A program made the translations under genes and the position numbers. Shown here piece by piece: positions 11,648 through 26,139 of a stretch of 50,479 nt of DNA (positions are counted from its first letter, which is position 1; each line of letters opens with the position of its first letter). The notes under the pieces are model-generated. The model searched no databases, was not told where the DNA came from, and worked only from the letters and a program-made list of their open reading frames with translations. This DNA is from an uncultured bacterium (GTDB taxonomy: Bacteria > Patescibacteriota > Patescibacteriia > Patescibacteriales > UBA12465): contig CAIQRY010000064.1 of the NCBI GenBank assembly GCA_903874345.1, forward strand, positions 1 to 50,479, written 5' to 3'.

Positions 11648-11658
11648 AAACGAAAATA

Positions 11659-11689
11659 AAAAAGCCCTGTTCATTGAACGGGGCTTTTC
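11659..11689. terminator. Bidirectional rho-independent terminator (helicase gene on +, small unit on -)
   Basis: GCCCTGTT (11664-11671) / AACGGGGC (11677-11684): 8 bp with one G-U pair and loop CATTG. An A-run lies before it and a T-run after. Confidence 0.65.
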
Positions 11690-11716
11690 ATTTGGTCGTT
11701 TGTAGTCTTACCCAAT

Positions 11717-12019: not shown

Positions 12020-13033
12020 TTATTTTACGCTTAAAGTATTAATCATCATCTTAAAAACCGTGGGGTAAGCGACGCGACTATCAACCGCCGGAATATAAGA
12101 AATAATATAGACGCTCTTATGTTTCTTATCGGTCAAATAAAAGTTAAACCCGTCGCTACTCATCACCCCGTCCCAAGTCGCGGTCGTCTTAATCTGATCA
12201 TAAGTGACTTTTTCCGTTGGGAAAGCTTCGCTATACCAGCCCAGGATACTTTGCTTACTAGTATTGTCTTGAATAGAAATTTGAATTAAAGAGTCATCCG
12301 GCGCATTAAACAGCATCGTATTATCATTATTCAAAGATTTGACCGTCCAGGCTTTAGGATAAAGAACACTATAACCTAAAACCTTGCTAGTAGCGGTCGC
12401 GAGCGACAAATTCGCTCCTAATTTCCCGGTACCGGTTGGATTATAACCATTTAAAATCTCCGTTAAATCGCCGTAACTATTATTATTAGTATCTGTTAAG
12501 GCGGGGTTGGTGCCGAAAGCAGCCTCTTCTTCATCGTTTAAACCGTCATTATCCGTATCTATTAAGGGGGCGGCCGGTGTGGTCGTACTTAATTCTTCGC
12601 CTATAGGCGAAGATGAGGTCGCTCCGGAACTTGTGGCGTTTAAATCAAGAACGGTTGAAGAAGTAGCTAAGATCTCCGTTGTCGTCGCGATTAGTGATGC
12701 GCTAGTCGTCGCTGATGAATTATCTGTTTTTGGAGAAACTATTGGCGCGCTGACTAGAGACGTATTTGCATTATTTTTAGTCGCCGGCTTGATAATGTAA
12801 AGATAAGAAAAATAAAATAACAAACCAATAAAAATAACGCCGCCCCCAATAATCAAAATACCGACGGCCTTAAAATTATTTTTGCCGCTAATTTTTGGCT
12901 GAGGCGCTGTAGCCGGACCCGATAAACGATTCGTTGCCGGCATATTATGAACAACTAGATCGTCATGAATTTTTTTATCCACGTCAAGATCAGTTGCCGC
13001 ACTCAAATTTTTCTTTTTATTTTTACCAAACAT
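12020..13033 (-). CDS. Single-pass membrane protein: Ser/Thr-rich stalk, thrombospondin-type-3-like Ca-binding repeat, C-terminal PsbP/Mog1-like beta domain
   Basis: 337 aa. TM AVGILIIGGGVIFIGLLFYFSYLYII, S/T-rich linker, DTDNDGLNDEEEAAFGTNP...GYNPTGTGKL. The C-terminal LGYSVLYPKAWTVK... pattern is typical of small sandwich domains. It is the last gene of the surface operon. Confidence 0.75.
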   Translation of the reverse strand: MFGKNKKKNLSAATDLDVDKKIHDDLVVHNMPATNRLSGPATAPQPKISGKNNFKAVGILIIGGGVIFIGLLFYFSYLYIIKPATKNNANTSLVSAPIVSPKTDNSSATTSASLIATTTEILATSSTVLDLNATSSGATSSSPIGEELSTTTPAAPLIDTDNDGLNDEEEAAFGTNPALTDTNNNSYGDLTEILNGYNPTGTGKLGANLSLATATSKVLGYSVLYPKAWTVKSLNNDNTMLFNAPDDSLIQISIQDNTSKQSILGWYSEAFPTEKVTYDQIKTTATWDGVMSSDGFNFYLTDKKHKSVYIISYIPAVDSRVAYPTVFKMMINTLSVK

Positions 13034-13036
13034 AAT

Positions 13037-13234
13037 TTATAAACTAAGCAGGGCAAAAACAGTCAAAGCCACCACGACTAAAAACGCTATGCCGGTGACG
13101 AGCCATTTCTGCCAATGCTGGCTCGCGGTCGGCGGCATAGTATGGAGATTTAAAGATAAACGCGGCAGCGTTTTGGGCGCTTTGGAAGCATCCGGACGCA
13201 ACCGCGCTTGGTTGTTGGAAGGAGTATTAATCAT
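13037..13234 (-). CDS. Small tail-anchored membrane protein (65 aa)
   Basis: ATG start, C-terminal TM WLVTGIAFLVVVALTVFALLSL. Gaps of 3 nt and 17 nt to its neighbours. It shares an H(T/N)MP motif with the N-terminal tail of the next gene product. Confidence 0.5.
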   Translation of the reverse strand: MINTPSNNQARLRPDASKAPKTLPRLSLNLHTMPPTASQHWQKWLVTGIAFLVVVALTVFALLSL

Positions 13235-13251
13235 TTTAAGAGTTATGCAGT

Positions 13252-13917
13252 TTATTTGAGCCCAGACAAACGACCCGCACCATTCGGATTATAACCGCCA
13301 CTAACCTCGGCACCATCTAAGTAGCCGTCTCCGTCTGTGTCCGGGTTATAGGGATCCGTATGATAAACATTTATCTCTTGATAATCTGTTAAACCATCAC
13401 TATCCGAATCCAAAGTCGAACTTGCATCCAGGACGGTTGAGGTCGCCGTGGTCGTTGCCGTAATTTCCGGAATAGTCGAAGTCGGAACGGTCGTTAATTC
13501 GGTCGAGGTCGATAGTGTACTGGTTGCGATTGAAGTATTAGTGGTTTCGGCGGTTGAGCTGGATGTGGTGGTCGTCGTAGTTGTTGAATTTTGGTTCTGT
13601 TTTTGAGTAAGCGCTGTGGTACTAGTGCTAGACACCGCCGGTGTTTGACTCGAGGAATTAGTATTTTTGAAAAACTGCGAATAAACCAAGTAACCGATTA
13701 ATAATATAATTATAGCCACGATGGCCACGATGGCAATTTTAAACCAAGGGAGACCACCTTTTTTTTCAGTCTCTTCGGGAACTGGTCCTTCGGCGGAAGC
13801 CAGGCCGACTTTTCGGGTCGTAATATCACCGGCGCCACTGGGCGAAACCTTATCAGTTTCCGCGAATATATCATCAACTGTTTGATTGTTGGCAGAATTG
13901 GCGGTGTCGTTAAACAT
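13252..13917 (-). CDS. Single-pass membrane protein with Thr-rich stalk and C-terminal thrombospondin-type-3-like repeats
   Basis: 221 aa. TM WFKIAIVAIVAIIILLIGYLVY, poly-Thr (TTTTTTTSSS), DSDSDGLTDYQEINVYHTDPYNPDTDGDGYLDGAEVSGGYNPNGAGRL at the C-terminus. Confidence 0.75.
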   Translation of the reverse strand: MFNDTANSANNQTVDDIFAETDKVSPSGAGDITTRKVGLASAEGPVPEETEKKGGLPWFKIAIVAIVAIIILLIGYLVYSQFFKNTNSSSQTPAVSSTSTTALTQKQNQNSTTTTTTTSSSTAETTNTSIATSTLSTSTELTTVPTSTIPEITATTTATSTVLDASSTLDSDSDGLTDYQEINVYHTDPYNPDTDGDGYLDGAEVSGGYNPNGAGRLSGLK

Positions 13918-13949
13918 AAATTTATAAACTATTAATATTAACTCCCCTA

Positions 13950-13978
13950 ATTATAGCGAATAAAAACCGGCCTGGCTA
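13950..13978 (-). promoter_or_regulatory. Possible internal promoter (TAGCCA-17-TATAAT) ahead of the 221-aa gene
   Basis: It lies in the only sizeable (87-nt) gap of the operon. The -10 is perfect and the -35 is weak. Confidence 0.3.
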
Positions 13979-14004
13979 TATTTTAAAAATTGCCGCGGCG
14001 TGCC

Positions 14005-14310
14005 TTATTTTTGGCGAGGACTAATCGGTCCCAATTTGTCCGGATTAGTTACAATATCGCTTGTACTTCTAATTATCTTATAAACCATTAATTCTCCGTT
14101 CGCCCCGCGTTCAACGGCTTGAACTTGCGCCACGTCGGGCAAGCCTAAAGCTTGTTTCTCGGCCGTATTTAAAAATTCTGGCTTATAAGTCGTGTTTGAC
14201 GTGGTCGCGGGATTAGAATTATTTTTCTTAATTACAAGCACTACTCCTAAAACAACCAGAATTAGAATAACCAGCGCCCCGCCCAGTATCATTATTTTCT
14301 TATTTTTCAT
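14005..14310 (-). CDS. Small N-terminally anchored protein (101 aa)
   Basis: ATG start and TM IMILGGALVILILVVLGVVLVI followed by a ~65-aa polar domain. It starts 10 nt downstream of the 1051-aa gene. Confidence 0.6.
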   Translation of the reverse strand: MKNKKIMILGGALVILILVVLGVVLVIKKNNSNPATTSNTTYKPEFLNTAEKQALGLPDVAQVQAVERGANGELMVYKIIRSTSDIVTNPDKLGPISPRQK

Positions 14311-14320
14311 ATTTTATAAT

Positions 14321-17300
14321 TTATTGTTGATTGCCTGTGCAAGTTGTCGGATCGGAGGTGCAGAACTTTCCATACTGACCATTACAACAAACCTGGCCCG
14401 GACAACAATAAGTCGAACCACACTTTGGCGTTAACTCACTATTATTATAGCAAGTTCTATTACTCATACCAGAACCACAACAAGTTTGAGTATCTTTATT
14501 ACAGCATGGGCCATAACCGCAAGTTAATTTATTTTGGGTGGGGTCGGCCTGGCAGGCGCCACTACAACAAGTTTCGCTACCTTGGGTGCAGCAAGTATTA
14601 AATGCCGTGCCACGCGGGTTTTGACAAACATCATAAGAACTGGAAACTGCTTGATTAACGCACTTACAAGATAGCTGGCTTAAACATACATTATTCTTAC
14701 AGGTATACCCCGTCGGGCAAGAACAGCCGGTGGTCGCGCCGCAAAGATCACACCCGGTGTTATTATTATGACAATTCGGTTGGCCCGTACAATGTCCGGC
14801 CGGGTTGCACATCTGGTTGGCGGCGCAGGTGCCACAGACACCACCGCAACCGTCTGGGCCGCATTCTTTCCCAATACAATTTTGAGTGCAAGCACCGCAC
14901 CCTGAATCTTGAGACTCACAACCATTAAGCGGTTTACCGTCGCAATCATACCAACCCAAGTCACAAACACAAATATTATTCTGAAGGCTTTGATGCGCGG
15001 CGCAAGTGGGCGGCGTTGAAGAAGCCACACAATCATCCGCACAATTTGTAGTCGTTTCCATCGTGGTCGTGCCCGTCGCGGTCGGAATAATTAATTGGCA
15101 ATAACCGTCGCCGCAATAACCGCCGCCCGCCGCCGGAGACTTAAAGACGCAATAACTACCATTCGGAATTAGGAGTGGCGTTGTTGAACCCACGCCTGTA
15201 GTGCAACCGTATTGTTTATCAATACTTGAAGCAGCGGGAGATGTCGCGACACTAGCCGCGCCATCGCAATCTTCGAAACCATCATTATAGAAACCACCAC
15301 GGCCTTCCATATTCGGAACTTGCTTAAGACCGTCTCCGCAATAATCATTAATACTTAAAATAAAAGCCCGTGTCGAGGAAGCGCCATATTCATTTGTCGC
15401 CTTAATGATAATATTGGTACCGGTCGAAGTCGCAGTCGGTGTACCCGACAGATATGTAACGGTTGGCTGATGCGTTGCTGGTGGTAATGTAGTATTAATA
15501 GCTGAACTAGTTTTGATAAAAAAATTAAAAATCGCACGCGCTAAATTACCAAACGATTGTTTAAGGCTAACGGCCCTGCCATTTCCCGAACCGCTACTTT
15601 GTCCGCTAGCCAAACTTAAACCAGCCGGCAAGGGGCTGCTTGTATAACTCAAAGAATGATTACCGAATTGGTCAGAACCAAGCAAACAAGAGTAGCTGCT
15701 GTTTAAACGCGCGGCATTAGAACAATTAAAATCGACCGGTGGGTTATCAACGATAACATGAATTGTAAATAATTTAGTTGCAAATACGCCATATTTATCC
15801 GTCACCGTTATCTTATAGGTGAAATCCGTATTCTGATAAAAACGGAAAGTCGTCGCAATCAAACCATTATAATCAATTCGATAACTAGCAATACCAGCCG
15901 AAGTCATGATTTTGGTTAAACCAGCGCCATTTAAAAGATCGAAGGGGCCGGCTATTTTTACCACCGTATAAGCGGCACCTGGATTATTAATGTTGGCGCC
16001 GGAAAAAACAAAATTATAATCAAAAGGCACTAAAGGATCCAAAACAAATTCCCCGTCGGCGGCGGAAATAACCGGTGCTGGGTTAATAATTTTAAGCGGT
16101 GTGGTCGTGGTAAAAACGCCACCTTGGCCGTCGCTCACTGTTAAAACTGCATTATACGTTCCCGGATTCCCTGCTAAACTGGCATAGATTTTTTTCTGAT
16201 TCGGGTCAGTTGTATCTTTTAAAACCGGCGGATTATTTTGACTATTGTTTTGCCAGCCGGTCCAGGTTGTACCGGAAGGATTAAAATTCCAAGTTAAAGG
16301 ATTATTCTGATCATCAATCATTCGAACAAAACCATTAAATTCCTGACCAGCCACGCCCGTCAGCGATGAGGCGACCAAACGCGGCGGGGTATTGGTCGCG
16401 TTCCCACCGGAATTAATACCAGTTGCCGTGACGCAAGCTGAGGCCGCCGGATCATTAGGAGAAAAATGATAACCCAGCATGGGACTCGAAGCATCGCGAC
16501 TTTCCATAACGGCGCACAAATTATAATTTGAACCGTTTTTATCCGTTTTATAAACCAGGGCGTAGCTCCCAGCGGGAAGCGGTAAATAAGCCGAATTCGA
16601 ATTATAAACAAATTTCTTGAGTTCGGCGCTCCAACAAGTTATCGGATTATACCCCGGGCAGGCGCCTAAGCGATTAATCGGATCGGTAGTGGGTTGTGAA
16701 ATACTGAGCGTACTAAGCAAAGATTCTAACCAACTAGGCCAGACCGAAACACTATGCCCGGTTAAATAACTACCGGCCGAAAGCAGCGGATAAGCACCTT
16801 GGGTTTGCTTGTATTGAAATAATGCCTCTTTTATCTCTTCTAATCGCCCGACCCGTTTTAAATCGCGAGCAATTTTGGCTTTAACACTATCACAGAAAAA
16901 ATTAGTCGGGCAATCTGTATCCGTCAAACAATTTTTAGTGGTTGTGAGCTGACAAGAGCTCGAAGCAAGGTTCGCCGTAGCACAGCCCTGGTTCGCACCA
17001 CAATCAGCATCGCTCGCGCAACTTAAAGAAGAAATTGAGCAGCTCGGTAAAGGATTTGTGCTTTCCGGGATGTTGCTGTTAAATTTCCAATGCGCTACAA
17101 TTTGGCCCAAAATATCCACTGTCTTCGATTCCGAACTCTGATTATAAGAAATCAAATAAATATTGGAATAAACCAATTTACTAATCGGATCAACATTGGC
17201 GGCATTAACGTAAACAGTTCGGCCGTCACGAATCGCCTCATAGCCATCGACAATTAAGGCCTGCGGAGAACCACTAAACCCCTGACTCTCATACCAACGC

Positions 17301-17476
17301 TGAATACTATAATGATTTGGATTAGGCACGACCCGTACGGCAATAGCATCGCTCGATAAAGCTGCTTGACCTGACCCGCTAGCCCCCGTTGATTGGGCCG
17401 CAGAATATTTAAAAGCCAATAAAAAAGCAATAACGACAAAAACAGCGCCAAAAATAAGCCAATTTTTTTTCTTCAT
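14321..17476 (-). CDS. Large secreted/anchored Cys-rich adhesin-like protein (1051 aa) with an embedded pseudopilin-like segment and Ig-like repeats
   Basis: Signal/anchor MKKKNWLIFGAVFVVIAFLLAF. Residues ~198-328 read ARDLKRVGRLEEIKEALFQYKQTQGAYP...YALVYKTDKNGSNYNLCAVMES, matching the type IV pilin/GspG globular-domain pattern. Ig-like repeats are present (YNAVLTVSDGQGGVF, YKITVTDKYGVFATKLFTIHV). The C-terminal ~340 aa hold about 50 Cys (YCGDG...EDCDG, CGPDGCGGVCGTC). Confidence 0.9.
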   Translation of the reverse strand: MKKKNWLIFGAVFVVIAFLLAFKYSAAQSTGASGSGQAALSSDAIAVRVVPNPNHYSIQRWYESQGFSGSPQALIVDGYEAIRDGRTVYVNAANVDPISKLVYSNIYLISYNQSSESKTVDILGQIVAHWKFNSNIPESTNPLPSCSISSLSCASDADCGANQGCATANLASSSCQLTTTKNCLTDTDCPTNFFCDSVKAKIARDLKRVGRLEEIKEALFQYKQTQGAYPLLSAGSYLTGHSVSVWPSWLESLLSTLSISQPTTDPINRLGACPGYNPITCWSAELKKFVYNSNSAYLPLPAGSYALVYKTDKNGSNYNLCAVMESRDASSPMLGYHFSPNDPAASACVTATGINSGGNATNTPPRLVASSLTGVAGQEFNGFVRMIDDQNNPLTWNFNPSGTTWTGWQNNSQNNPPVLKDTTDPNQKKIYASLAGNPGTYNAVLTVSDGQGGVFTTTTPLKIINPAPVISAADGEFVLDPLVPFDYNFVFSGANINNPGAAYTVVKIAGPFDLLNGAGLTKIMTSAGIASYRIDYNGLIATTFRFYQNTDFTYKITVTDKYGVFATKLFTIHVIVDNPPVDFNCSNAARLNSSYSCLLGSDQFGNHSLSYTSSPLPAGLSLASGQSSGSGNGRAVSLKQSFGNLARAIFNFFIKTSSAINTTLPPATHQPTVTYLSGTPTATSTGTNIIIKATNEYGASSTRAFILSINDYCGDGLKQVPNMEGRGGFYNDGFEDCDGAASVATSPAASSIDKQYGCTTGVGSTTPLLIPNGSYCVFKSPAAGGGYCGDGYCQLIIPTATGTTTMETTTNCADDCVASSTPPTCAAHQSLQNNICVCDLGWYDCDGKPLNGCESQDSGCGACTQNCIGKECGPDGCGGVCGTCAANQMCNPAGHCTGQPNCHNNNTGCDLCGATTGCSCPTGYTCKNNVCLSQLSCKCVNQAVSSSYDVCQNPRGTAFNTCCTQGSETCCSGACQADPTQNKLTCGYGPCCNKDTQTCCGSGMSNRTCYNNSELTPKCGSTYCCPGQVCCNGQYGKFCTSDPTTCTGNQQ

Positions 17477-17486
17477 ATATATAAAC

Positions 17487-20400
17487 TTAGTGGGCAGGAA
17501 TTGAAGTCATTACTTCGGAAGATTTTAGACTTTCGTTGTTATAAGCATCTAAAGCCGTCAGGGCAAAATAATTATTACCAGCTGGAAACTGACTAGTATC
17601 AAAGGTTAAAGTCGTGGCCGTTGCCACGGAATCAAAAGATTCTCCGTATTGATGAGCAACAATACCATGATATAGACGATATAAAACTGTGTCATCAGAA
17701 TTAGCATCCCAAGTAAACGTTATTTTACTATTATCAACCGGAACACCAGGATGAATAATTTTAGGCTGAATAATAAAACCTAATGGCACGACGGGAGGCG
17801 TCTGGTCAGTCGGAGTCGTCGTTTTTTCATTGGATAGTTGGCTCTCGGTCTGATTGACCGACACAACCGAAACCTTGAAAATATAGCTCTGGTTATTAGT
17901 TAAGCCACTAATAACCGTACTACAGGTATAAACATTACTAGTTAATGTGCAGCTCGCGAGCGTAACTGGTTTGACCATTAAAGTTCCCTGCCCGGATTTT
18001 AAATAATAAATTTTAAAAGAAGCTACTTGGCTGGCGCTTGAGTTCCAGTCAACTTTAACTTCGCCGCCAGTTTTTTCATCGGTAGCATTAATTATTTCCC
18101 CGGCGTTCGGAATAGTTTCCCGGAAAAAATACGATTCTTTAAGAACGTCCCAGACACAAAGACCGTCTGCTTGGCCATCACCATTTTTATCCGTGCCGCA
18201 GGCCGCGCCTAAATTACTGCAAGGCGCATGGTCGGCGCTACAAATTAAACTTGTGTTCTGGCCGCGCGTCACGGCTTGATTAACAATCGCGGGTAAATCA
18301 TCTAAAGTTCCAGTTTTACCTAAATCGCGACAATAATAAAATTTATAATTGTAATTGCTACAATTTCCGCTACCGGCCAAACAATTACTACCCGTATCAT
18401 TCCAGGGCGACCAGGTACCGTTAAGGGCAATTGGCGGCCAAGGATTATTGCAAACAAAAACGTAGAGATCGGCGGCTTTATTTACTTGATCGCCATTCGA
18501 ATAAACATTGCAACAATTATTATTGCAATTTGAACCGGTACAAGAGCAGCTCGGACTACTGTCACAACTCGCACCCAAGAAACGGGTCATGTCGACTTTA
18601 GCCGTAATCTGCGTTGAATTATCCGTTACCCCGGCTTGCGCCGTAGCAAAAGATTGATTGACTGGTAGACTGGGCACCGCGCTAAGCGCGGCCACACTGG
18701 GGTCGGCAATTTGCCATTTATAGTCCCAGAAATAACCGGTCACAGGTTGTAAAATCTGATTATCCGAGCTATAAGCCCAGGTCGTGAAGACTTTGTCGCG
18801 ATCAGAAACCGTATCAAAAGTTTTGTCATTCGGATTAATATCATTTTCATTTAAAGCATTGTCCGTCGTCTTAAAGAGATACGAAACCGGATTAACCGTC
18901 ACGTGATCAACGGCGCAAATGCCGGCCTTTGGCCCCTGGTCTGATAAAGTAGTAAATTTAAAAATCTGAGAATTTTTATAAGACTTGTTATTAAATTTAA
19001 TTAAGTCGCCGGCAACATAGGTACCGGAAGAGGGGTCAAAATAACCGGGGCCAGTAAAACCAATTTCTTGGAGACTTAACACGCCGGATTGGCTATTTAA
19101 ATTTTCATCCCCTTTCACGACTAAATAATAATTACTCGAAGCGGCTAATAGGCGCTGGGGCATAAAAACAAGCGCCGTGCTACTCCCTTCATTTTCCGAG
19201 CTGACCGTTCCTGGTACGGCACAATATAAATGTTCGGCCGGAGGCGTATTGTTCGAGGCGAGTACGCTGCCGCTCAAACGACCAACTAAATTTTTAACTG
19301 TTAAAGATACTTGCCAATACCAACGTGTTAAAAAATTGGCATTTTTATAAGCTAATAAATCTTGCAAAGAATTACCTTTAGCTATAAAGGTACCGGCGGG
19401 GCAAACACCATTGGCATAGCTTCTTTCTTCTAGTAATAAAATGTTACTAAAAGATGTAATATCCATATTCTGATTAAAGTTAACCTTAACGACGGCATTA
19501 CGACAAACATTAGTTGCTAAATGAGGTGGCGTTGTGGAAGCAATTTCCGGACGAGCCTGACAGCAAGTATCTGTGCCGCAACCCACGGTACTTGGTGAGC
19601 CGCATTCGTTGTCGCTACTGCAACCGCAACATAAACCGCGGCTCGCACCAGAGCAGTTACCTTTATCAGCTAAACATTTTAAATTTGGATTAAGAGCCGT
19701 ACAAGCGTCATTCGCCTGTCCCGGCTTACAGCAACAAGTACCGCAATCCGGCTGCGATGTGCCCAAAGAACCAGAGGCAAGTAAACAGGCAAAACCCGGA
19801 AAATTACAAATTTCACTTTGACAGGTCGACGTGGCTACGCCTGCGCAAGACATGCCTGGCCCTTGCGGTGTATTTGCACAATAGTAAGAACAAGTATCAA
19901 TCGTAGGGTAAAGACCTAGTTTCGCCGGCGTCGAAGTCGCACATTTTGTCGGGTCACCCGGAGGTGTCGAAGACGCCGTCTGACAATTATAATAAGCGCA
20001 GTAGCCGGCATCAGCACTACCCGTTATTTTATCGCCTAAGCGACAAGCACCGCCGCCCGTCGCTTTGGCATCGAAGCAACAACGCGTACTTTTCGCCAAA
20101 CAAGAAGTCATGTCCGTAATTCCGGCACAAGGATCCGCGTTTTGACAATCAGTAATACAGGTTTGTTGATTTGGATAAGTTCCAATTTTAACCGGCGTGG
20201 TCGTGGCGCATTTAGTCGGTTCAGTCGCAGAACAATCATAATAAGCGCAATAACCAAAATCGATACTGCTCGGATTATTCGATATTAATTGACCACTCCC
20301 ACCGCGACAAACATCGTCCGCAGTTGATGGCGTTTTATTAGCGTCTAAACAACAAGCGCTAGAGTGATCTGTACAATTTTGAGCTGACAAGCCGGTGCAA

Positions 20401-23333
20401 TCCGAACAAACGCCATCCGGGAATTGAGCATTATTAATATCGCAATACTGTCCGCTATGTCCGGTACAATTACAAGCGGCGTCTCGTGCTTCCGGTGTCG
20501 CCCCGGCTGATTTACAACCACCGCAACGACCTAAAGTCGCACCGCTCGTCTTGCCTGTGTCTGCGCCGCAAGTACCTTCGCACTGCAAACCAGCACAGCA
20601 ATCACGCGCGCTCTGGCCAATCTGACAACAACAATCGCAACTCGGCTGTTTAAGTGTAAAACATTTATCATGACCGCTCGTCGCGTCCGCTTCACAGGTC
20701 GAACCGGCCGCACAAATAGAACCAGACGTACAACGCCCCGCGGAACCAATTTTATTGCAAGTCAGCGGCGAACTACAGATTTCGCAAGAACCGGACACAC
20801 AACGATTACCCGTGGATTTAGTCCAGCCATCCGGACAACGTCCGGCCACTGTTATCTCCCATTGTTTATCTGAATTACAAGTTTCGGTTGTCGTTGCTGT
20901 TATGGTTTTACCACCCGCCACGTATTGATAAGTAAACTCTTGTGCTAAATCACAATTCGCGCCCGTCCCGTTTTTCAAACAACGTCCGGAAACAGAATCA
21001 TAACTACAATTATTCGGAGCGAAATCACCACAACCCGAAACCGAGGCGCAAGTTGAATCACAATCGCCGGCCGCCACTTTAGTTCCGCCGGAATAAGGCG
21101 AACAAGTGCCTGGTACATTGGGGCAAGTCGCGCCGTTTTGGCAAGAACCATAATAACCAGCCGCGCCCGCGCAACTGTAAAGACTCGGACCGAAACCAGT
21201 TGAAAAACTCCATTCAAAAACCGAAGTCGGGATATTAATAAAACATTCCGCCAAGGTATTGGCGCAACGTCCTTTTTTATAAGTACTCGCCGGACAACAA
21301 ATCTGCGTCCCGCAATCCGCATCAACATGACATTCGCCCATTAGGAAATTCAATTCATTACCCCAGGTACTATTATTTACGACATGAACCGGGCCAGTAA
21401 TCGCTCCATCCGGAACCGTGGTCTGAATCATATTAGCGCGACCATCAACCGCAATCGTCCCGGTCGCGGATTTATCATAATTAAATTTCACCAAACCCTC
21501 ATCGCCAACGCGACCAAAATATTCACCCCATAAAGTCACGGGTGTCGCGGCCGGACCACGACTCGGATCAATTCTACATAAACTAGTTTTCAAAGCTAAA
21601 TTCTTATCGGCCTGAAAAGTATTTGGATTAAGTCCCTGGGTATCTATAGTTGTCGCGCCCAAACTGACTTTAATCGTATAATTACCATCTGCTAAACCGG
21701 CCGGTACTTTAACAATAATTTGATCATCCCGCCAAACCGCATTCAAACAAACATCCGGAAAATCATAAGAGGCTTCGGTGTTACCGAAGTAAACATGATT
21801 ATTGCCACGCGCGCCACCAAAACCATAACCGCGAATCGTCACGTATTGCCCGGCCGAACCGGCCGTCGGCGTAAAAGAAATAATGTATGGTCCCTCGCCC
21901 TGCTCTGGCTCTTTAACAAAGCTTAAAAAATTACTCGGAACGCGATTACCATTAATATTATTAATAACAAAACTGCCCGAGTCACCAGCCCGGATATTCG
22001 GCGTGGTCGAAGTTCCGGCTAAACCGGCTGGACTATTAAACTGCGAATCTAAACCGCGGACGTTCGCCTGATAATTACCAAAATAAGCATTACCAGAGTA
22101 AAGATTAATGCCTTCGTAGCCAACCGCCGAGCTTAATTGTCCTTTGTCCGGACTTAAATAACATAGACCAGGACGCGCGATGACGTTTGCTTCAAAATCT
22201 GGAATCTGCGGACCATAAGTATTATCAGTCGTGTCATTAAAATTATCTTTATTAACAACTTTGATTGGTCCGTTAGTCACGCCGCCCGGTACAGCAATTA
22301 CAATTTGCGTATCGGTCCAAGAATTAATACAAGCCGGATTTAAAGTTTGGGGTGCTACGCCTAATTGCGGGCTGTTTGCCCCTTCAAAAATTAATTGACT
22401 ACCGGTGGCCGAATAAGTACCAAAATTCTTACCGGAAATAGTAATAAAATTATCCGGAGCACCGTTCGGGCTGGCCGTATTACAAGTCGTGGCGCAATCG
22501 CTATCTTGCGTACAAACCTTATTGCGATCTTCCTGACAAAAACCGCCGACCGGACTAATCGCCGTAATGACTGGCGTCCCGGTACAAAGGCAGGAGCTCG
22601 GATCACAAGTTAAATAAGCCCCGCAACGATTATTGTCCGGCTGGCAAGTCGCATTAGTCGTGTCTAGATTGCAAGCCTGGCCTGAACCAGATTGCGGTAC
22701 GCACAAACAAGAAGTTGGATCGCAGTAATTACCAGTGGCGCAAATTTGATTTAAAGGCGAACAAATCGGTGAAGCCGGGTTAGCGTTACAAACCGTGGGC
22801 CCGCCGCCGCCTGAACAATTTGAACCGATACAACCACCCCAGGAGTTACCATAACAAGTCATGTACCCGCCGCAACCACAAGAGGCTGTACTGCCATCCG
22901 TGCAACCGCTACCGCTACCGCTACCACCAATCGCCCCGCCTAAAGCCGAAATAATAAAAGTGGCAATAGCCCAAGAAGCTAAAATAATTCCTAAGCCGAT
23001 TACGGCACTCTTCAAAAGTTTCTTGGCTTCTTCAACTTTTTCTTCATCGCCGTTTGAGGTCATCCATTTAAACCCGCCGTAAACAATAATTAATAAAGCA
23101 ATGGTTCCTAAAAAGCCGAGGGCTAGATTAATAATACGAGCGATAATCGTCCGTAAATCAGTGCCGCCACCTGGTAGTGAGTTATTCAAACCATTAGCCG
23201 CGGCGTTAATTCCATAATCCTGTGCCAAAGCGAAATGTGCCATTAACAGGCCTCCCAATAAGAAGCCTAGAAAAACCAAGATTTTTTTACGGTTGATTTT
23301 AAACACAAAGTATATAAATTTTTGACTCAACAA
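17487..23333 (-). CDS. Giant surface protein (1948 aa): VirB2/TrbC-like pilin hairpin + Cys-rich modules + IPT/TIG-like repeats + SbsA/Ig-like domain + two C-terminal FN3-like domains
   Basis: Uninterrupted ORF. The track start is TTG at 23333, 3 nt after the upstream stop; GTG at 23306 (MFKINRKKILVF...) is an equally good start. IPT-like PYIISFTPTAGSAGQYVTIRGYGFG and RIDPSRGPAATPVTLWGEYFG. About 120 Cys by hand count. FN3-like VKVDWNSSASQVASFKIYY...YIFKVSVVS and ITFTWDANSDDTVLYRLYHG...YNNES. Confidence 0.9.
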   Translation of the reverse strand: MLSQKFIYFVFKINRKKILVFLGFLLGGLLMAHFALAQDYGINAAANGLNNSLPGGGTDLRTIIARIINLALGFLGTIALLIIVYGGFKWMTSNGDEEKVEEAKKLLKSAVIGLGIILASWAIATFIISALGGAIGGSGSGSGCTDGSTASCGCGGYMTCYGNSWGGCIGSNCSGGGGPTVCNANPASPICSPLNQICATGNYCDPTSCLCVPQSGSGQACNLDTTNATCQPDNNRCGAYLTCDPSSCLCTGTPVITAISPVGGFCQEDRNKVCTQDSDCATTCNTASPNGAPDNFITISGKNFGTYSATGSQLIFEGANSPQLGVAPQTLNPACINSWTDTQIVIAVPGGVTNGPIKVVNKDNFNDTTDNTYGPQIPDFEANVIARPGLCYLSPDKGQLSSAVGYEGINLYSGNAYFGNYQANVRGLDSQFNSPAGLAGTSTTPNIRAGDSGSFVINNINGNRVPSNFLSFVKEPEQGEGPYIISFTPTAGSAGQYVTIRGYGFGGARGNNHVYFGNTEASYDFPDVCLNAVWRDDQIIVKVPAGLADGNYTIKVSLGATTIDTQGLNPNTFQADKNLALKTSLCRIDPSRGPAATPVTLWGEYFGRVGDEGLVKFNYDKSATGTIAVDGRANMIQTTVPDGAITGPVHVVNNSTWGNELNFLMGECHVDADCGTQICCPASTYKKGRCANTLAECFINIPTSVFEWSFSTGFGPSLYSCAGAAGYYGSCQNGATCPNVPGTCSPYSGGTKVAAGDCDSTCASVSGCGDFAPNNCSYDSVSGRCLKNGTGANCDLAQEFTYQYVAGGKTITATTTETCNSDKQWEITVAGRCPDGWTKSTGNRCVSGSCEICSSPLTCNKIGSAGRCTSGSICAAGSTCEADATSGHDKCFTLKQPSCDCCCQIGQSARDCCAGLQCEGTCGADTGKTSGATLGRCGGCKSAGATPEARDAACNCTGHSGQYCDINNAQFPDGVCSDCTGLSAQNCTDHSSACCLDANKTPSTADDVCRGGSGQLISNNPSSIDFGYCAYYDCSATEPTKCATTTPVKIGTYPNQQTCITDCQNADPCAGITDMTSCLAKSTRCCFDAKATGGGACRLGDKITGSADAGYCAYYNCQTASSTPPGDPTKCATSTPAKLGLYPTIDTCSYYCANTPQGPGMSCAGVATSTCQSEICNFPGFACLLASGSLGTSQPDCGTCCCKPGQANDACTALNPNLKCLADKGNCSGASRGLCCGCSSDNECGSPSTVGCGTDTCCQARPEIASTTPPHLATNVCRNAVVKVNFNQNMDITSFSNILLLEERSYANGVCPAGTFIAKGNSLQDLLAYKNANFLTRWYWQVSLTVKNLVGRLSGSVLASNNTPPAEHLYCAVPGTVSSENEGSSTALVFMPQRLLAASSNYYLVVKGDENLNSQSGVLSLQEIGFTGPGYFDPSSGTYVAGDLIKFNNKSYKNSQIFKFTTLSDQGPKAGICAVDHVTVNPVSYLFKTTDNALNENDINPNDKTFDTVSDRDKVFTTWAYSSDNQILQPVTGYFWDYKWQIADPSVAALSAVPSLPVNQSFATAQAGVTDNSTQITAKVDMTRFLGASCDSSPSCSCTGSNCNNNCCNVYSNGDQVNKAADLYVFVCNNPWPPIALNGTWSPWNDTGSNCLAGSGNCSNYNYKFYYCRDLGKTGTLDDLPAIVNQAVTRGQNTSLICSADHAPCSNLGAACGTDKNGDGQADGLCVWDVLKESYFFRETIPNAGEIINATDEKTGGEVKVDWNSSASQVASFKIYYLKSGQGTLMVKPVTLASCTLTSNVYTCSTVISGLTNNQSYIFKVSVVSVNQTESQLSNEKTTTPTDQTPPVVPLGFIIQPKIIHPGVPVDNSKITFTWDANSDDTVLYRLYHGIVAHQYGESFDSVATATTLTFDTSQFPAGNNYFALTALDAYNNESLKSSEVMTSIPAH
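19875..20354 (-). repeat. Intragenic tandem duplication of a ~70-aa Cys-rich module in the 1948-aa gene
   Basis: aa 994-1065 CCLDANK...GYCAYYDCSATEPTKCATTTPVKIGTYPNQQTCITDCQN (20139-20354) versus aa 1085-1153 CCFDAKA...GYCAYYNCQTASSTPPGDPTKCATSTPAKLGLYPTIDTCSYYCAN (19875-20081). Confidence 0.65.
22929..23285 (-). other. VirB2/TrbC-like (T4SS-pilin-like) two-helix hairpin module, N-terminus of the 1948-aa protein
   Basis: Signal peptide ...HFALA|QDYGINA, helix IIARIINLALGFLGTIALLIIVYGGF, charged loop KWMTSNGDEEKVEEAKKLLKS, helix AVIGLGIILASWAIATFIISAL, then a GSGSGSG linker. Confidence 0.55.
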
Positions 23334-23336
23334 ATT

Positions 23337-26042
23337 TTATTGGCAATTACCGTCCACGCCTAAAGTGCTAGTCAGGGCGCCAAAACAGCAAGACGGTTGA
23401 CTCGCGGTCGCCGCGCAATTCGGACCAGCCGACGGTTTATAACAATTCTGATAAATATCTTTAACGCCAGATCCAACTTGTGCCTTATAACTGACCGAAG
23501 CAGAAAAAGCGGAGTGATTAATTTTGGAAACCGTCATATCGGGCACGCCATCTAAAGGAGCCGTATCTAAATTATCATTTAAGACCCAATAACCTAGGGG
23601 TTCGGTCGATAAACTACGTAAATTTATTAATTTATGTTCAATCGTGCTAGTCCCGCTTTGAATCAAGACGCTACCCGTGCGGAGCGTGCTATTCATCATT
23701 AAAGTATTAAAAGTAATTGCTACCGGGTCGGCTAAATTCAAACCGCTTTGACTCTGGGCTGGGTTAGTCGTCGTAATAAGCGGCGTACCGGACATAATCT
23801 GGTCATTAACATAGAAGGACCATAGGAATTTATCTTCTCGGCCGGCATTGAGTTCGGGATGATAGTTAACATTATAGTTATCACTATAGAAAGAGATTGG
23901 TCCGGCTGCGGCCGTATCGCGATTACCATCTAAAGAATTCATGGCCGCGTCGACGATGCCATCTAAGCTACTGATATTAGCCGTCGGATAATTTTGGCCA
24001 CTATCGTTCTGACAAGTTTGATAACCGAGCGGCGTCGAGGAACAATTCTTATAAGGGGCGAGCGGCAAACATTCGCTACTGTTCGTACAAGTTTTTAAAT
24101 TGGCGGCGACGAGCTTAACCGCTAAATGACTATTAGCTGGCAAACAATAAATTTTTTCGCCGCAGCCGTTAACCCCGCATTCGTTATCTGATAAAAATTC
24201 CACCGTTCTATAACCGTTTGAAACTATGAATTTACCGCCGACATAATCGCCAACGCAAGTATTGTTACTGCATTTATAAGACTGGCAATCACTATTCTTA
24301 ACGCAAGCGGCGGCGGCCGGGCTCGAAGAGGCATCAGCATTCACAATGCGCAAATAAGGCGCTAATTCCGCGGCCGTTCCGGAAATAGTCATGGGATTAA
24401 CCGCTTCATTGAAATTAATCTGAATGACCGAGTTCATGGGGTTATCTCTCTTATCATTAACATTAGTCGTAATTATTTGATCGACGCCGCCGGAAAAAGC
24501 GCGGAGTCCCAAGGCGGCCGCATTAGTCGTTTGCAAAACAAGGTTATTACCATCCGCACCCGCAACCTTCGCTGTTAAATTCACGCGATTACCGGTTCGG
24601 GCCACATCAATATCGCTATTACCACTTAATTTTCCTTCTAAATTAAGCGCCACCGCATTCTTATCACAGGCGCCATTAGGCACTAAAACATTATTATTTA
24701 AATTATTAACGGCAAAAGTATAAAGCTCGGCGCCGACTAAAACCGTATCCGCTAATTGCTCAGGAATAATATCAACCGTCCATAAACTACCCGCTGGATG
24801 ACTCGGCGCGGTCAAACTTAAGTAATTAGGAAAAGTAACCAGACCATTACCATCAAAATTAGACACGCCTAATAAATTATTAGTTGCCCCGTCAAATAAT
24901 TGGGCCTTATCAGTCTCGCCGGCCGGAACCGCAATCTTAAACTGGGCAAGATTACCATGATAATTCAAAGCCACATTCGCGGTCGCCGGGCTAATCGTCT
25001 TAACCGTGGCCGCGGCATAAGTCGTCGGACAGTCGTTTACCGTAATCGCGCCGGTCGCGGCAATTGCGGGGATGGTTTGTTTGGCCGCATCCTTGAGATT
25101 GTCCGGAATTGGAAAAACGCCGCTCGGAGCGACAATAGGCGACGTTAAATCTAATTGGCTAGAAACCGTGAATTTCCATTCCGTATAATTAACGCTGCAA
25201 TTTTGAAAAATAGAATTACCTTCTTCATTTTTAATATTGTTGGTAAAACGAATGGTATAGGGTGTATTAGAAGTTGGTGAGCCCAAATAAGACATCGGGG
25301 TTAAAACTAAGGTCTTGTTACCGCTCGGGACAGAAACCAAAATATCCGTCACGTTCGTATTCGGGTTAGAGCAAGCGCTGCCGTTACAGGAATTACCTAA
25401 ATCAGTTTTGTATAAATTAATCGCGCGTGGATTAAGCTTCGTGCAATCAGTTTTATTACAAGCGCAACTAGCCCCACTATTATTAACACAAACCGAATCT
25501 AACTTTACCGCTTCTTTAAACGTCAACATGACCGAAGTATTGCGCGGCACTTCATTTTGACCGTCGGTCGGATAGTAACTATCAACCGCACAAGCACCAA
25601 TCGCGCCTAAGCCAACGCTTCCTAACCCACCATTGCCAGCGCCGACCTGATTACCGTTACCATTGCCGCCTAAAACCGCCGTGAGTTGTGTTAAGACAAA
25701 AGTCACAATAGCCCAAGAAGCTAAAATAATGACCAAACCAATAATCGCATCGCGCAAAGTTTTTTTCGCTGCCTCGATTTTGTCTTCTTCGCCGCCTGAA
25801 GTCATCCACTTAAACCCGGCATACATAATAATTACGAGAGCGAGCGCGCCTAAGAAACTCAAAGCGATTTGAATAATACGACCAATAATCAATCTCGGAT
25901 CTGATTGAGAAAGGTTAATGGTGTTATTCACGGCATTAATTCCATAATCCTGCGCCAAAGCAAAATTAGCCACCAACCATCCGGCCGCGCTCGTTAAAAT
26001 CGCTAGAATTAATTTCCCTGTTTTTCTCATGCCAGGAAACAA
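23337..26042 (-). CDS. Large surface protein (901 aa): VirB2/TrbC-like pilin hairpin + SbsA/Ig-like and beta-rich ectodomain; first gene of the surface operon
   Basis: The track start is TTG at 26042. ATG at 26030 (MRKTGKLILAILTSAAGWLVANFALA|QDYGINA) is the more likely start. SbsA_Ig-like segments VDSYYPTDGQNEVPRNTSVMLTFKEAV and NPMNSVIQINFNEAVNPMTI. About 26 Cys. Confidence 0.9.
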   Translation of the reverse strand: MFPGMRKTGKLILAILTSAAGWLVANFALAQDYGINAVNNTINLSQSDPRLIIGRIIQIALSFLGALALVIIMYAGFKWMTSGGEEDKIEAAKKTLRDAIIGLVIILASWAIVTFVLTQLTAVLGGNGNGNQVGAGNGGLGSVGLGAIGACAVDSYYPTDGQNEVPRNTSVMLTFKEAVKLDSVCVNNSGASCACNKTDCTKLNPRAINLYKTDLGNSCNGSACSNPNTNVTDILVSVPSGNKTLVLTPMSYLGSPTSNTPYTIRFTNNIKNEEGNSIFQNCSVNYTEWKFTVSSQLDLTSPIVAPSGVFPIPDNLKDAAKQTIPAIAATGAITVNDCPTTYAAATVKTISPATANVALNYHGNLAQFKIAVPAGETDKAQLFDGATNNLLGVSNFDGNGLVTFPNYLSLTAPSHPAGSLWTVDIIPEQLADTVLVGAELYTFAVNNLNNNVLVPNGACDKNAVALNLEGKLSGNSDIDVARTGNRVNLTAKVAGADGNNLVLQTTNAAALGLRAFSGGVDQIITTNVNDKRDNPMNSVIQINFNEAVNPMTISGTAAELAPYLRIVNADASSSPAAAACVKNSDCQSYKCSNNTCVGDYVGGKFIVSNGYRTVEFLSDNECGVNGCGEKIYCLPANSHLAVKLVAANLKTCTNSSECLPLAPYKNCSSTPLGYQTCQNDSGQNYPTANISSLDGIVDAAMNSLDGNRDTAAAGPISFYSDNYNVNYHPELNAGREDKFLWSFYVNDQIMSGTPLITTTNPAQSQSGLNLADPVAITFNTLMMNSTLRTGSVLIQSGTSTIEHKLINLRSLSTEPLGYWVLNDNLDTAPLDGVPDMTVSKINHSAFSASVSYKAQVGSGVKDIYQNCYKPSAGPNCAATASQPSCCFGALTSTLGVDGNCQ
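25668..26015 (-). other. VirB2/TrbC-like pilin hairpin module, N-terminus of the 901-aa protein (paralogue of 22929-23285)
   Basis: LIIGRIIQIALSFLGALALVIIMYAGFKWMTSGGEEDKIEAAKKTLRDAIIGLVIILASWAIVTFVL. By eye about two-thirds identical to the 1948-aa module. The shared DNA word atagcccaagaagctaaaataat occurs in both. Confidence 0.55.
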
Positions 26043-26067: not shown

Positions 26068-26076
26068 TGATATAAT
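26068..26076 (+). promoter_or_regulatory. Extended -10 promoter TGATATAAT for rel (divergent)
   Basis: Plus-strand TGATATAAT about 92 nt upstream of the rel ATG at 26168. Confidence 0.4.
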
Positions 26077-26089
26077 TTAGGATGTCTTT

Positions 26090-26098
26090 ATTATAACA
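26090..26098 (-). promoter_or_regulatory. Extended -10 promoter TGTTATAAT for the surface-protein operon
   Basis: The minus strand reads TATGTTATAATAAAG, 48-60 nt upstream of the first start codon. Confidence 0.45.
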
Positions 26099-26100
26099 TA

Positions 26101-26139
26101 AAAAACAAAAAATAAAAAAGCCCGCTGCGGTAGCGAGGC
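26101..26139 (-). terminator. Terminator-like hairpin on the minus strand (also a 5'-UTR hairpin of rel on the plus strand)
   Basis: GCCCGCT (26120-26126) / AGCGAGGC (26132-26139): 7 bp plus one bulge. On the minus strand it is followed by TTTTTTATTTTTTGTTTTT. Confidence 0.35.

Follow-up and report, generated by a model that had tools for sequence, protein, structure and literature searches.

The window, a stretch of 50,479 nt, contains seven genes (g1 to g7) that, at a probability of about 0.5, encode one multi-protein structure of the cell envelope or surface, specific to Patescibacteria of the Falkowbacteria type (ABY1), vertically inherited and held at a fixed position in the core genome. 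The best reading is a surface complex with modular pilins of the VirB2 type as its foundation, for which a role in host attachment is plausible; we infer both the joint assembly of the seven products and the attachment role of the structure. The reality of the genes, the topology signals, domain content, hairpin fold, synteny, promoters and location of the variable parts are established, as described below.

Layout, conservation and promoters of the cluster

The original prediction described seven co-directional open reading frames between 12020 and 26042, with gaps of 3, 10, 10, 87, 17 and 3 nt from g1 to g7; coordinates, strand, lengths and gaps were all found in the sequence as claimed (Table 1). 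The block was also correctly said to take more than a quarter of the window (14,023/50,479 nt, 27.8%), the rest of which is indeed of housekeeping type, coding for SecDF, ClpP, RelA/SpoT, HisRS, LepB, QueA, RuvB, GyrA and others. The likeliest start of g1 is the ATG rather than the upstream TTG, since its orthologues begin with MxKKxK; the starts of g2 and g4 are placed a few codons downstream by other gene callers.

Table 1. Genes and promoters of the cluster, with their positions in the window
Feature	Position	Strand	Description
Extended -10 promoter of g1 (TGTTATAAT)	26090..26098	-	T-rich tract before promoter
g1	23337..26030	-	897 aa; modular VirB2-type pilin; TTG alternative start at 26042
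g2	17487..23333	-	1948 aa; modular VirB2-type pilin
g3	14321..17476	-	1051 aa; secreted
g4	14005..14310	-	101 aa; bitopic
Internal sigma70-like promoter, g4-g5 gap	13950..13978	-	TAGCCA-17-TATAAT; promoter scan
g5	13252..13917	-	221 aa; bitopic
g6	13037..13234	-	65 aa; tail-anchored
g7	12020..13033	-	337 aa; bitopic

Orthologous loci were gathered with g3 as the anchor, giving 80 loci from distinct species of Falkowbacteria-type (class ABY1) Patescibacteria. The order relA(-) g1-g7(+) clpP(-) secD secF is found in nearly all of these species-level loci that are sufficiently long, and where matches to g4 and g6 are missing, divergent copies fill their places. The seven families co-occur in the same order across dozens of species and were not found scattered, so that the reading frames are not chance ones. 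Two exceptions count against the main reading: one locus (L008) has a g3-like gene beside a TSP3 gene in a different genomic context, and another (L064) has no g1 or g2 that could be recognised upstream. The giant reading frames are uninterrupted, independent assemblies from other samples being 99.995-100% identical, without gaps, over 15.6-18.2 kb; the proposed CPR origin of the DNA agrees with homologues confined to Falkowbacteria or Patescibacteria.

Identity to the window is 0.52 for g1, 0.50 for g2, 0.46 for g3 and 0.32-0.41 for g4 to g7, and 0.65-0.87 for the neighbours SecD/F, RelA and ClpP. These levels, together with a g1 length fixed at about 880-915 aa, indicate that g1 to g7 are under purifying selection. 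Variation is confined to Cys-rich modules, those of g2 and of g3, and the remaining core, at about 50% identity and with fixed lengths, would fit a structural component of the envelope as well as an adhesin; such conservation is unusual for host-specific adhesins, which is counted against the main reading.

The extended -10 element predicted before g1 on the minus strand is present and kept in 56 of 60 related loci, the TG and the T, A, T, A and T positions being invariant (alignment A8). The g4-g5 gap is consistently the widest of the cluster (median 70 nt), and 48 of 54 orthologous gaps contain a TA[TA]AAT box and a -35-like T(A/G)GCCA box. Given this conserved sigma70-like promoter, the cluster is probably not the single simple operon initially proposed, and g5 to g7 would be separately expressible; the internal promoter likewise counts against the main reading.

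Domain architecture of the seven products

All seven products are exported or membrane-anchored, as had been stated, with a signal or anchor helix in 7/7 according to hydropathy. The adhesin-type modules that had been recognised were recovered with Pfam and NCBIfam, with matches to T4SS_pilin, Big_5, TIG, He_PIG, TSP3_bac and, below threshold, fn3; the same searches returned no enzyme, ATPase or regulator among g1 to g7, and none of the products contains a prepilin motif.

g1 and g2 each have a signal peptide and two transmembrane helices (hydropathy), and in both the two-helix hairpin corresponds to the T4SS_pilin family: in g1 at nt 25695-25889 (Pfam E=2e-11, 44.2 bits against a cut-off of 26.6), in g2 at nt 22953-23159 (E 2.4e-12, above the gathering score), the latter also matching the NCBIfam Mbov_0395 pilin-like family with 46.2 bits (cut-off 40). 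At the hairpin the two proteins share 60% identity; their ectodomains show no relationship. In g1, a Sec signal peptide, the hairpin and a Gly/Asn linker precede an all-beta ectodomain of about 750 aa, with 26 Cys and Big_5 Ig-like domains (Pfam E=1.3e-13). The AlphaFold2 model (pLDDT 86.9, pTM 0.68) consists of helices 45-76 and 82-120 forming a helical hairpin, followed by a disordered Gly/Asn linker and by beta domains packed in a compact ectodomain. Orthologues of g1 are found at 64 loci (median identity 52%), and at least 204 homologues of 880-915 aa in the database have the same Pfam pair. The g2 ectodomain, of about 1800 residues, contains in order Cys-rich knots, IPT/TIG domains (e.g., nt 21612-21890; Pfam TIG 2e-13), a variable Cys-rich middle part, a Big_5-like domain (Pfam 1.1e-4) and C-terminal FN3-like domains (nt 17841-18083; Pfam fn3 1.1e-4, below threshold), with 124 Cys in total; orthologues occur at 76 loci, the complete ones measuring 1460-2320 aa. 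The claim that the gene set cannot be mapped to any named system is therefore only partly right, since g1 and g2 have a genuine T4SS_pilin domain of the VirB2/TrbC type according to Pfam and to the AlphaFold2 hairpin. On sequence and model, the two hairpins link the cluster with VirB2-like pilins already known from Patescibacteria (PMC12102498, PMC10633639).

Hydropathy gives g3 a signal peptide. Behind it lie a strongly conserved N-terminal domain at aa 40-135, a Cys knot and, at aa 198-345, a domain of helix plus sheet; some four domains of Ig/cadherin type come next, and the C-terminal end is a Cys-rich tail that varies. The helix-plus-sheet domain is possibly pseudopilin-like; T2SSG matches occur in only 5/54 orthologues. 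The AlphaFold2 model (pLDDT 81.7) resembles tandem cadherin/Ig arrays in Foldseek, with E from about 1e-9 to 1e-11. The at least 521 homologues are exclusively from Patescibacteria, with relatives in 268 GTDB species; conservation of the tail is below 20%, its length is variable, and the C-terminal Pfam modules differ among homologues.

The remaining products are small bitopic proteins, whose features were derived from hydropathy and alignment. g4, with orthologues at 58 loci and divergent copies where no match is found, has a transmembrane helix at the N-terminus and, on the outside, a small conserved domain with the motif PEF..EK...Q....G..VYKII. g5 and g7 have an internal transmembrane helix after a predicted cytoplasmic head of about 56-60 residues. 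In g5 the head is conserved (MFNDLNN..VDDIFAETDK) and the helix is followed by a Ser/Thr-rich stalk (S+T content of the protein 30.8%) and two TSP3 calcium-binding repeats (TSP3_bac, Pfam 1.2e-9; DxDxDG motifs at aa 170 and 193). g7 comprises a head with IVHNMP, the helix, a Ser/Thr stalk, a TSP3 repeat (Pfam 2.2e-7) and a PsbP-like C-terminal domain at about aa 205-337, which gave PsbP Pfam matches in 28/64 orthologues (best E 1.4e-4) and a match to the PsbP protein of PDB 2xb3 (E 0.0088); its 142 homologues, of about 340-370 aa, are exclusively from Patescibacteria. g6, detected or recovered at 58 loci, has the conserved N-terminal motif RLSLNLH(T/V/I)MP and a C-terminal transmembrane helix. 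Among the 4520 reading frames of the 80 loci, the LH(T/N)MP motif is common to g6 and g7 alone.

Proposed structure and alternative readings

In the proposed structure, g1 and g2 would be exported by Sec, cut by signal peptidase after FALA and inserted as two-helix hairpins like those of VirB2/TrbC, their two ends facing outward; in this orientation, each hairpin would anchor a large disulfide-stabilised Ig/TIG/FN3 stack on the outer face of the membrane. g3 would be secreted and dock on the g1/g2 scaffold through its highly conserved N-terminal part, with the variable Cys-rich tail directed outward, while g4 to g7 would form the membrane base, with the peptides MFNDLNN..DDIFAETDK (g5) and LH(T/N)MP (g6, g7) contacting some cytoplasmic partner. 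The Ser/Thr stalks would span the wall zone, the TSP3 repeats would be calcium-binding sites, and g7 would engage an outside partner through its PsbP-like domain; contact with the ligand or the host would likely be made by the Cys-rich modules that vary in g2 and g3. The linker between hairpin and ectodomain of g1 is only about 16 residues long, which is counted against the main reading: a hairpin remaining in the membrane would keep the ectodomain there and not let it reach beyond the wall.

A linker this short is understandable if the hairpin is pulled out of the membrane, as would occur if a distant VirB4-type machine extracted the g1 and g2 hairpins and added them to a conjugative-type pilus, where they would probably be minor or tip subunits displaying the giant ectodomains. 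Modular type IV pilins would offer a parallel, PilB of Streptococcus sanguinis being an example; for type IV pili the modular-pilin concept has been described (PMC8179133). The T4SS_pilin scores above threshold, the VirB2-like signal peptide and hairpin (Pfam, AlphaFold2) and the essential VirB2-like pilin arrays of patescibacterial T4SS loci (PMC10633639, PMC12857230) speak for such polymerisation; moreover, three cluster-bearing ABY1 genomes (L009, L021, L042) are VirB4-positive in PMC12102498 Table S1, and GW2011_GWF2_43_32 has both VirB4 and TrsD. However, VirB4 is present in most Patescibacteria, making this co-occurrence weak evidence; VirB4, VirB6, TrsD and other T4SS genes are absent from the 50-kb window and from +/-10 kb at the 80 loci, with no T4SS machinery within 10-25 kb of the cluster, and an ectodomain of 750-1800 aa per subunit is sterically hard to place in a VirB2-type helical pilus. 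Extraction into a pilus is rather unlikely. An S-layer-like envelope coat of the lineage with its anchors, structural and not involved in host recognition, has a slightly better though still minor chance: hairpin anchors would hold a lattice or wall-zone scaffold made of g1, g2 and g3, with g5 and g7 as calcium-dependent spacers. Near-universal presence, the core-genome position beside secDF, clpP and relA, fixed sizes at about 50% identity and the strong conserved extended -10 promoter are consistent with a coat. The cluster also combines features that S-layer glycoproteins typically have: Big_5 (SbsA-type Ig) and several further Ig-like domains, stalks of Ser/Thr and repeats that bind calcium. 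S-layer proteins have been reported in Patescibacteria (bioRxiv 10.1101/2024.05.28.596244), from a search for large, anchored proteins with a signal peptide and Ig-like domains. On the other hand, SLH or other known S-layer anchoring domains are absent, PDB and Pfam gave no match to known S-layer proteins, three different giant proteins with four small ones exceed the complexity of known S-layer operons, and the Cys-rich tips, variable in both g2 and g3, resemble ligand-binding modules.

It is very improbable that the seven are independent surface proteins with no joint function, or a mobile or phage-derived insertion. Independence could explain the promoter before g5 and the g3-like gene standing alone with a TSP3 gene in L008, but identical order and tight spacing persist across dozens of species whose proteins are 37-60% identical. 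As regards an insertion, g1 weakly resembles uncharacterised phage proteins in Foldseek (E 1e-10), but the TM of about 0.2 points to generic beta-sandwich arrays; no mobile-element or phage signature was found in the window or in related loci, the flanks are constantly of housekeeping type with no integrase, transposase or tRNA near the cluster, and its GC, only slightly above the window mean, is accounted for by composition.

Comparison with known systems

The cluster probably encodes an as yet undescribed cell-surface or attachment structure of an ultrasmall CPR bacterium. Among the closest known systems are the VirB2/TrbC-type T4SS pilins, including the VirB2-like pilin arrays of Patescibacteria (PF18895; Southlakia epibionticum, TM7x), which g1 and g2 resemble in the signal peptide and two-helix hairpin, with PF18895 above threshold; two paralogous pilin-domain genes in tandem also recall the VirB2-like arrays of the same phylum. 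Unlike the known pilins, of about 100-150 aa and often adjoining VirB4, the hairpins here are fused to ectodomains of 750 and 1800 aa, lie far from any T4SS gene and belong to a fixed seven-gene set; their 60% identity contrasts with an average of about 25% in the arrays (PMC12102498).

Modular type IV pilins, including S. sanguinis PilB and frequent in CPR genomes (PMC8179133), similarly join a pilin module to extra adhesive domains (Ig-like, He_PIG, FN3, lectin), but belong to another superfamily, with a class III signal peptide and a single N-terminal helix, and the prepilin motif is missing from g1 to g7. Giant Ig/cadherin-like adhesins (RTX adhesins, Bap/SiiE-type) and Gram-positive conjugation adhesins, of which PrgB is an example, share tandem beta-sandwich domains, calcium dependence and extracellular location, and g3 has Foldseek matches to cadherin and RTX-adhesin repeats; the cluster differs in having no T1SS signal, LPXTG motif, RTX repeats or repeat expansion, and in its VirB2-like hairpin anchor, many disulfides and conserved length. 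Membrane-anchored S-layer glycoproteins of archaea and monoderm bacteria likewise combine large Ig-like arrays, Ser/Thr-rich stalks by the membrane anchor, calcium binding and a core-genome location, whereas the cluster is multi-gene, uses a hairpin anchor and has no homology to a known S-layer protein or anchor. Finally, the DxDxDGxxDxxE calcium-binding repeats of g5 and g7 are also found in TSP3-repeat envelope proteins (OmpA-like TSP3 and the cell-cell cohesion protein MtsD, NCBIfam NF047639); here, however, only one or two repeats occur, scoring far below the family cut-offs, and they are joined with a cytoplasmic motif, a transmembrane helix, a Ser/Thr stalk and, in g7, the PsbP-like domain.

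The seven genes and their conservation

The seven open reading frames of the minus strand, g1 to g7, coincide in all coordinates with the original prediction (see table), although for g1 an ATG at 26030, giving a protein of 897 aa, is the likelier start. As had been claimed, a signal peptide or a TM helix is predicted from hydropathy in each product, and Pfam and NCBIfam profile searches match structural and adhesive modules only, in keeping with the proposed lack of enzymes, ATPases and regulators; LPXTG, prepilin and lipobox motifs were not found in g1-g7 by motif search.

At least 521 homologues of g3 are present in the databases, each of them from Patescibacteria and most labelled Falkowbacteria. 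An alignment scan with g3 over one genome per GTDB species identified relatives in 268 species; it supplied 80 loci, each with flanks of 10 kb, in which gene order was read by searching the ORFs with the window proteins. The synteny expected for a genuine gene set is indeed observed: the seven families keep one order in related loci, the commonest arrangement being relA(-) g1 g2 g3 g4 g5 g6 g7 (+) clpP(-) secD secF, and in the remaining patterns this order is either truncated where a contig stops or complete except for an undetected g4 or g6. Of the gaps without a g6 match, 19 out of 20 hold an ORF of ~60 aa with LH(V/I/T)MP and a C-terminal TM helix, that is a divergent g6, and a g4-like ORF is present in the g3-g5 gaps without a g4 match. 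Independent assemblies of this organism, built from other samples, show 99.995-100% identity across 15.6-18.2 kb, free of gaps; thus, the giant ORFs, whose interruption would have undermined the proposal, are intact and are not assembly artefacts.

Features of the window, with the median identity of related proteins to those of the window
Feature	Position	Strand	Length (aa)	Median identity
g1	23337-26042	minus	901	0.52
g2	17487-23333	minus	1948	0.50
g3	14321-17476	minus	1051	0.46
g4	14005-14310	minus	101	0.32
g5	13252-13917	minus	221	0.41
g6	13037-13234	minus	65	0.36
g7	12020-13033	minus	337	0.40
SecD/F				0.65
relA/spoT (identity for RelA)	26168-27634			0.78
ClpP				0.87
Extended -10 upstream of g1, TGTTATAAT	26090-26098	minus
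Extended -10 towards relA/spoT, TGATATAAT	26068-26076	plus
GC-rich hairpin, then T-run, CTCGCTACCGCAGCGGG CTTTTTTATT	26121-26137	minus
g3 aa ~625-668, SGSGNGRAVSLKQSFGNLARAIFNFFIKTSS...	15473-15604
[LIVM]H[TNVI]MP motif of g6	13127-13147
[LIVM]H[TNVI]MP motif of g7	12938-12952
SF1 helicase gene	8927-11647	plus
72-aa ORF	11717-11935	minus	72
Bidirectional terminator	~11655-11690
Wzy_C protein	1823-3883	minus
Wzy_C protein	39174-40472	minus

Some loci display other arrangements. In L008 (1465-13978), where g1 and g2 are missing, the g3 homologue adjoins a 325-aa TSP3 protein in another context, and a small pilin of 124 aa lies 8 kb from it; L069 contains a second g3-like gene after g7 (13436-16588); in L064 (1-5100), recognisable g1 and g2 are replaced, upstream of g3, by a Cys-rich protein (11.5% Cys) of >944 aa and by a 652-aa secreted protein.

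The remainder of the window consists of housekeeping genes, as originally described, including those for SecDF, ClpP, an SF1 helicase, RelA/SpoT, HisRS, LepB, QueA, RuvB, an AddA-like helicase-nuclease, GyrA, MscL, Ndk and deoxyhypusine synthase; no match was returned when it was scanned for tRNAs and Rfam families. The SF1 helicase gene and a 72-aa ORF, which has a GGAGG ribosome-binding site and a TTGACA-17-TAAAGT promoter-like site, are located between g7 and clpP and have a bidirectional terminator in common. No counterpart of either was detected in the 80 related loci, in which clpP usually comes directly after g7; they thus represent a lineage-specific insertion in the window.

Domain architecture of the products

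The products of g1 and g2 have the same layout, a signal peptide and two TM helices (hydropathy), and their N-termini match the T4SS_pilin family PF18895 with 44.2 and 47.2 bits, respectively (cut-off 26.6 bits); scores with TrbC (PF04956) are under the cut-off. Both contain the long Sec signal peptide, the two hydrophobic helices and the short charged loop that are typical of VirB2/TrbC pilins. The two proteins are 60% identical in the first ~100 mature residues, and similarity is confined to this hairpin region. Beyond it, g1 contains Big_5, while g2 matches TIG, Big_5 and fn3 and shows, in order, Cys knots, IPT/TIG domains, a Cys-rich middle (~aa 750-1250, its least conserved stretch), and Big_5-like and FN3-like domains. 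Among the database matches listed, g1 homologues are nearly all 880-915 aa long, with an identical pair of Pfam domains.

An AlphaFold2 model of g1, obtained with an alignment of database homologues (pLDDT 86.9, pTM 0.68), comprises the signal helix and hairpin helices 45-76 and 82-120; a Gly/Asn linker without order (121-136) leads from these to the ectodomain (145-897), which is all-beta and has conserved cysteines. The PDB sequence-profile search with g1 gave nothing significant; Foldseek against the PDB matched Ig/FN3 domains weakly, plus one CopC-like domain, and no solved structure is analogous to the entire ectodomain. In a Foldseek search of viral structures, g1 matched a Rhodobacter phage protein with E 1e-10 but with a TM of only ~0.2, and the match was rejected as a sign of phage origin.

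Searched exhaustively with HMMER, the g2 hairpin retrieved 39,153 representative clusters (E<=1e-3). The best 150 of these include small pilins, tandem polypeptides of 2-15 hairpins and numerous 837-3122-aa proteins whose single hairpin is N-terminal, indicating that the fusion of a hairpin to a giant ectodomain recurs in metagenomes. Tandem-hairpin chains and giants with an N-terminal hairpin both appear to be undescribed in the literature searched. Among the proteins from this search (P0241-P0389), the metagenomic P0255, of 1775 aa, has 15 matched hairpin stretches.

The third large protein, g3, carries an ordinary signal peptide (hydropathy), a very conserved N-domain (71-79% column identity), a Cys knot and a region combining a long helix and a sheet, and it matches He_PIG in Pfam/NCBIfam. 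In its model (pLDDT 81.7), aa 198-345 form a helix (198-226) followed by strands, and a GspG-like alpha-beta head was considered; PF08334 (T2SSG) matches 5 of 54 orthologues weakly (best E 0.0019), the PDB sequence search with this segment gave no match, and the class III signal peptide of type IV pilins and pseudopilins (G↓F/M-T-L-I-E motif) is absent from g1-g7. The PDB sequence-profile search with g3 returned nothing significant. Foldseek pairs the tandem Ig domains with cadherins and with the repeats of RTX adhesins; the results are dominated by such generic arrays, so the search does not address the N-terminal domains. The Cys-rich tail is variable among species, both in its sequence and length and in the modules it contains. 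Between Ig domains, ~45 residues (aa ~625-668) constitute a window-specific insertion, with 2-4% column identity in orthologues and a low-confidence amphipathic helix in the model.

The four small proteins are bitopic: g4 has an N-terminal anchor, g6 a C-terminal TM helix, and g5 and g7 a TM helix preceded by a cytoplasmic head of ~56-60 residues (hydropathy). A Ser/Thr stalk is present in both g5 and g7, as are TSP3 repeats of the calcium-binding type, for which the two score 38.2 and 31.0 bits, respectively, with TSP3_bac (PF18884; cut-off 25 bits), and the DxDxDGxxDxxE repeat is found in both by motif search. All g7 homologues are ~340-370 aa long, and the C-terminus of g7 is probably a PsbP-like domain: PF01789/PF18933 match 28 of 64 orthologues (best E 1.4e-4), the window g7 itself being unmatched, and the g7 profile matches PDB 2xb3 with E 0.0088, a separate PDB sequence-profile run giving nothing significant. 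The cytoplasmic head of g5 is near-invariant among orthologues (MFNDLNN..VDDIFAETDK), and g6 and g7 have in common an [LIVM]H[TNVI]MP motif in their N-terminal, presumably cytoplasmic segment; [LIVM]H.MP is exclusive to these two families among 4520 ORFs of the 80 loci. The motif and the g5 head look like docking peptides for some cytoplasmic partner. NCBIfam matches of g5 (IcmG/DotF, GltJ, RodZ, YidC and others) fall on the TM helix and low-complexity stalk, far under the cut-offs, and were therefore rejected, including that to IcmG/DotF of the T4BSS (27.7 bits against an equivalog cut-off of 200).

The window also encodes two Wzy_C (O-antigen ligase/PglL-like) membrane proteins, one with a weak, sub-threshold TPR match. 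Pilins are O-glycosylated by PglL-type enzymes, and on these general grounds the two proteins are candidate glycosylators of the g5 and g7 stalks.

Promoters and the relA/spoT gene

The extended -10 box upstream of g1 is kept in 56 of 60 loci; a second promoter, TAGCCA-17-TATAAT, is conserved in 48 of 54 loci within the g4-g5 gap, consistently the widest of the cluster (median 70 nt). The cluster thus probably has two promoters and two transcription units, g1-g4 and g5-g7.

A further extended -10 box faces the g1 promoter and is aimed at relA/spoT. Each of the two boxes is ~90% conserved in an alignment of 45 loci upstream of g1, and from both, transcription is predicted to start at almost the same point (~26083), so that the RNA polymerase footprints must overlap. 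This arrangement suggests that relA and the surface cluster are transcribed in competition or reciprocally, and it points to a testable regulatory tie between starvation signalling and surface-structure synthesis. A conserved AATTATAnCA box in the 5′ leader, considered as a leader RNA or operator, is actually the reverse complement of the relA-directed extended -10. The stretch that separates the relA start codon from the g1 promoter contains, in the window, a GC-rich hairpin with a T-run after it; this segment is missing in most related loci, where the relA ATG is just ~25 nt from the g1 -10.

Interpretation and relation to known systems

The best-supported interpretation is that the cluster encodes a multi-protein structure of the envelope or surface, specific to the lineage and inherited vertically, in which two modular VirB2-type pilins would be combined with the secreted Ig-repeat protein g3, bearing a variable tip, and with four bitopic base proteins. 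It is unlikely that the seven genes are grouped by chance or derive from a mobile element or phage, because both the gene order and the flanking genes are fixed. A role in host attachment is plausible, given a CPR organism, adhesin-type modules and variable tips.

One of the two main rivals, each less likely but still tenable, is that g1 and g2 polymerise via a T4SS into a decorated pilus. Monoderm-type T4SS with VirB2-like pilins are widespread in Patescibacteria, including the class ABY1, and these pilins are small, divergent, often arranged in arrays, and essential in Southlakia (PMC12102498, PMC10633639, PMC12857230); moreover, VirB4 is present elsewhere in the three cluster-bearing genomes checked through the supplementary tables of PMC12102498, all belonging to ABY1. 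VirB2/TrbC pilin genes, however, are often encoded together with T4SS machinery, whereas VirB4, VirB6, VirB3 and the other components are absent from the 50-kb window and from ±10 kb of the 80 loci; likewise, a known mature pilin has ~70-130 aa and is mostly hairpin, in contrast to the 897 aa of g1 and 1948 aa of g2. The other main rival is an S-layer-like coat. Here, Pfam matches are to generic Big_5, TIG and FN3 domains, and not to an SLH/CWB2-type anchoring module; PDB profiles revealed no S-layer homology, and Foldseek with the g1 and g3 models returned generic Ig arrays only. The large proteins g1-g3 have neither an LPXTG-like motif nor a C-terminal TM helix, unlike sortase-anchored pili or adhesins.

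A bolder extension of the surface-structure interpretation, which we regard as unlikely, is a new kind of organelle. Here, g1 and g2 would form a short VirB2-type filament or membrane raft, capped by a cadherin-like g3 with an exchangeable Cys-rich tip, and the four proteins g4-g7 would be a dedicated base signalling to the cytoplasm; Falkowbacteria-type CPR cells would seize hosts with it, and, through the head-to-head arrangement with relA/spoT, attachment and stringent response would be reciprocally controlled.

To our knowledge, little has been established on how uncultivated CPR/Patescibacteria other than Saccharibacteria hold their hosts and on what their envelope consists of; so far, experiments have implicated only type IV pili, a T4SS with arrays of small pilins, and a handful of adhesins. 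The cluster, on which 14 kb out of a genome of ~1 Mb are spent, provides a concrete conserved target for an entire ABY1 lineage, with defined anchors, stalks and variable tips. That it belongs to no named system, as first proposed, holds for the whole, since no description of the g1-g7 cluster or of hairpin-giant fusions was found in the literature searched, but not for the N-termini of g1 and g2, which are T4SS_pilin modules. Each individual domain is already known, as are VirB2-like pilins in Patescibacteria; what appears to be new is the fusion of the hairpin to giant ectodomains, the invariable partnership of g1 and g2 with five further families at a site in the core genome, and the private cytoplasmic motifs of the small proteins. 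With the VirB2 hairpin as the N-terminal module of giant proteins, the idea of modular pilins is widened from type IV pili to T4SS-type pilins.
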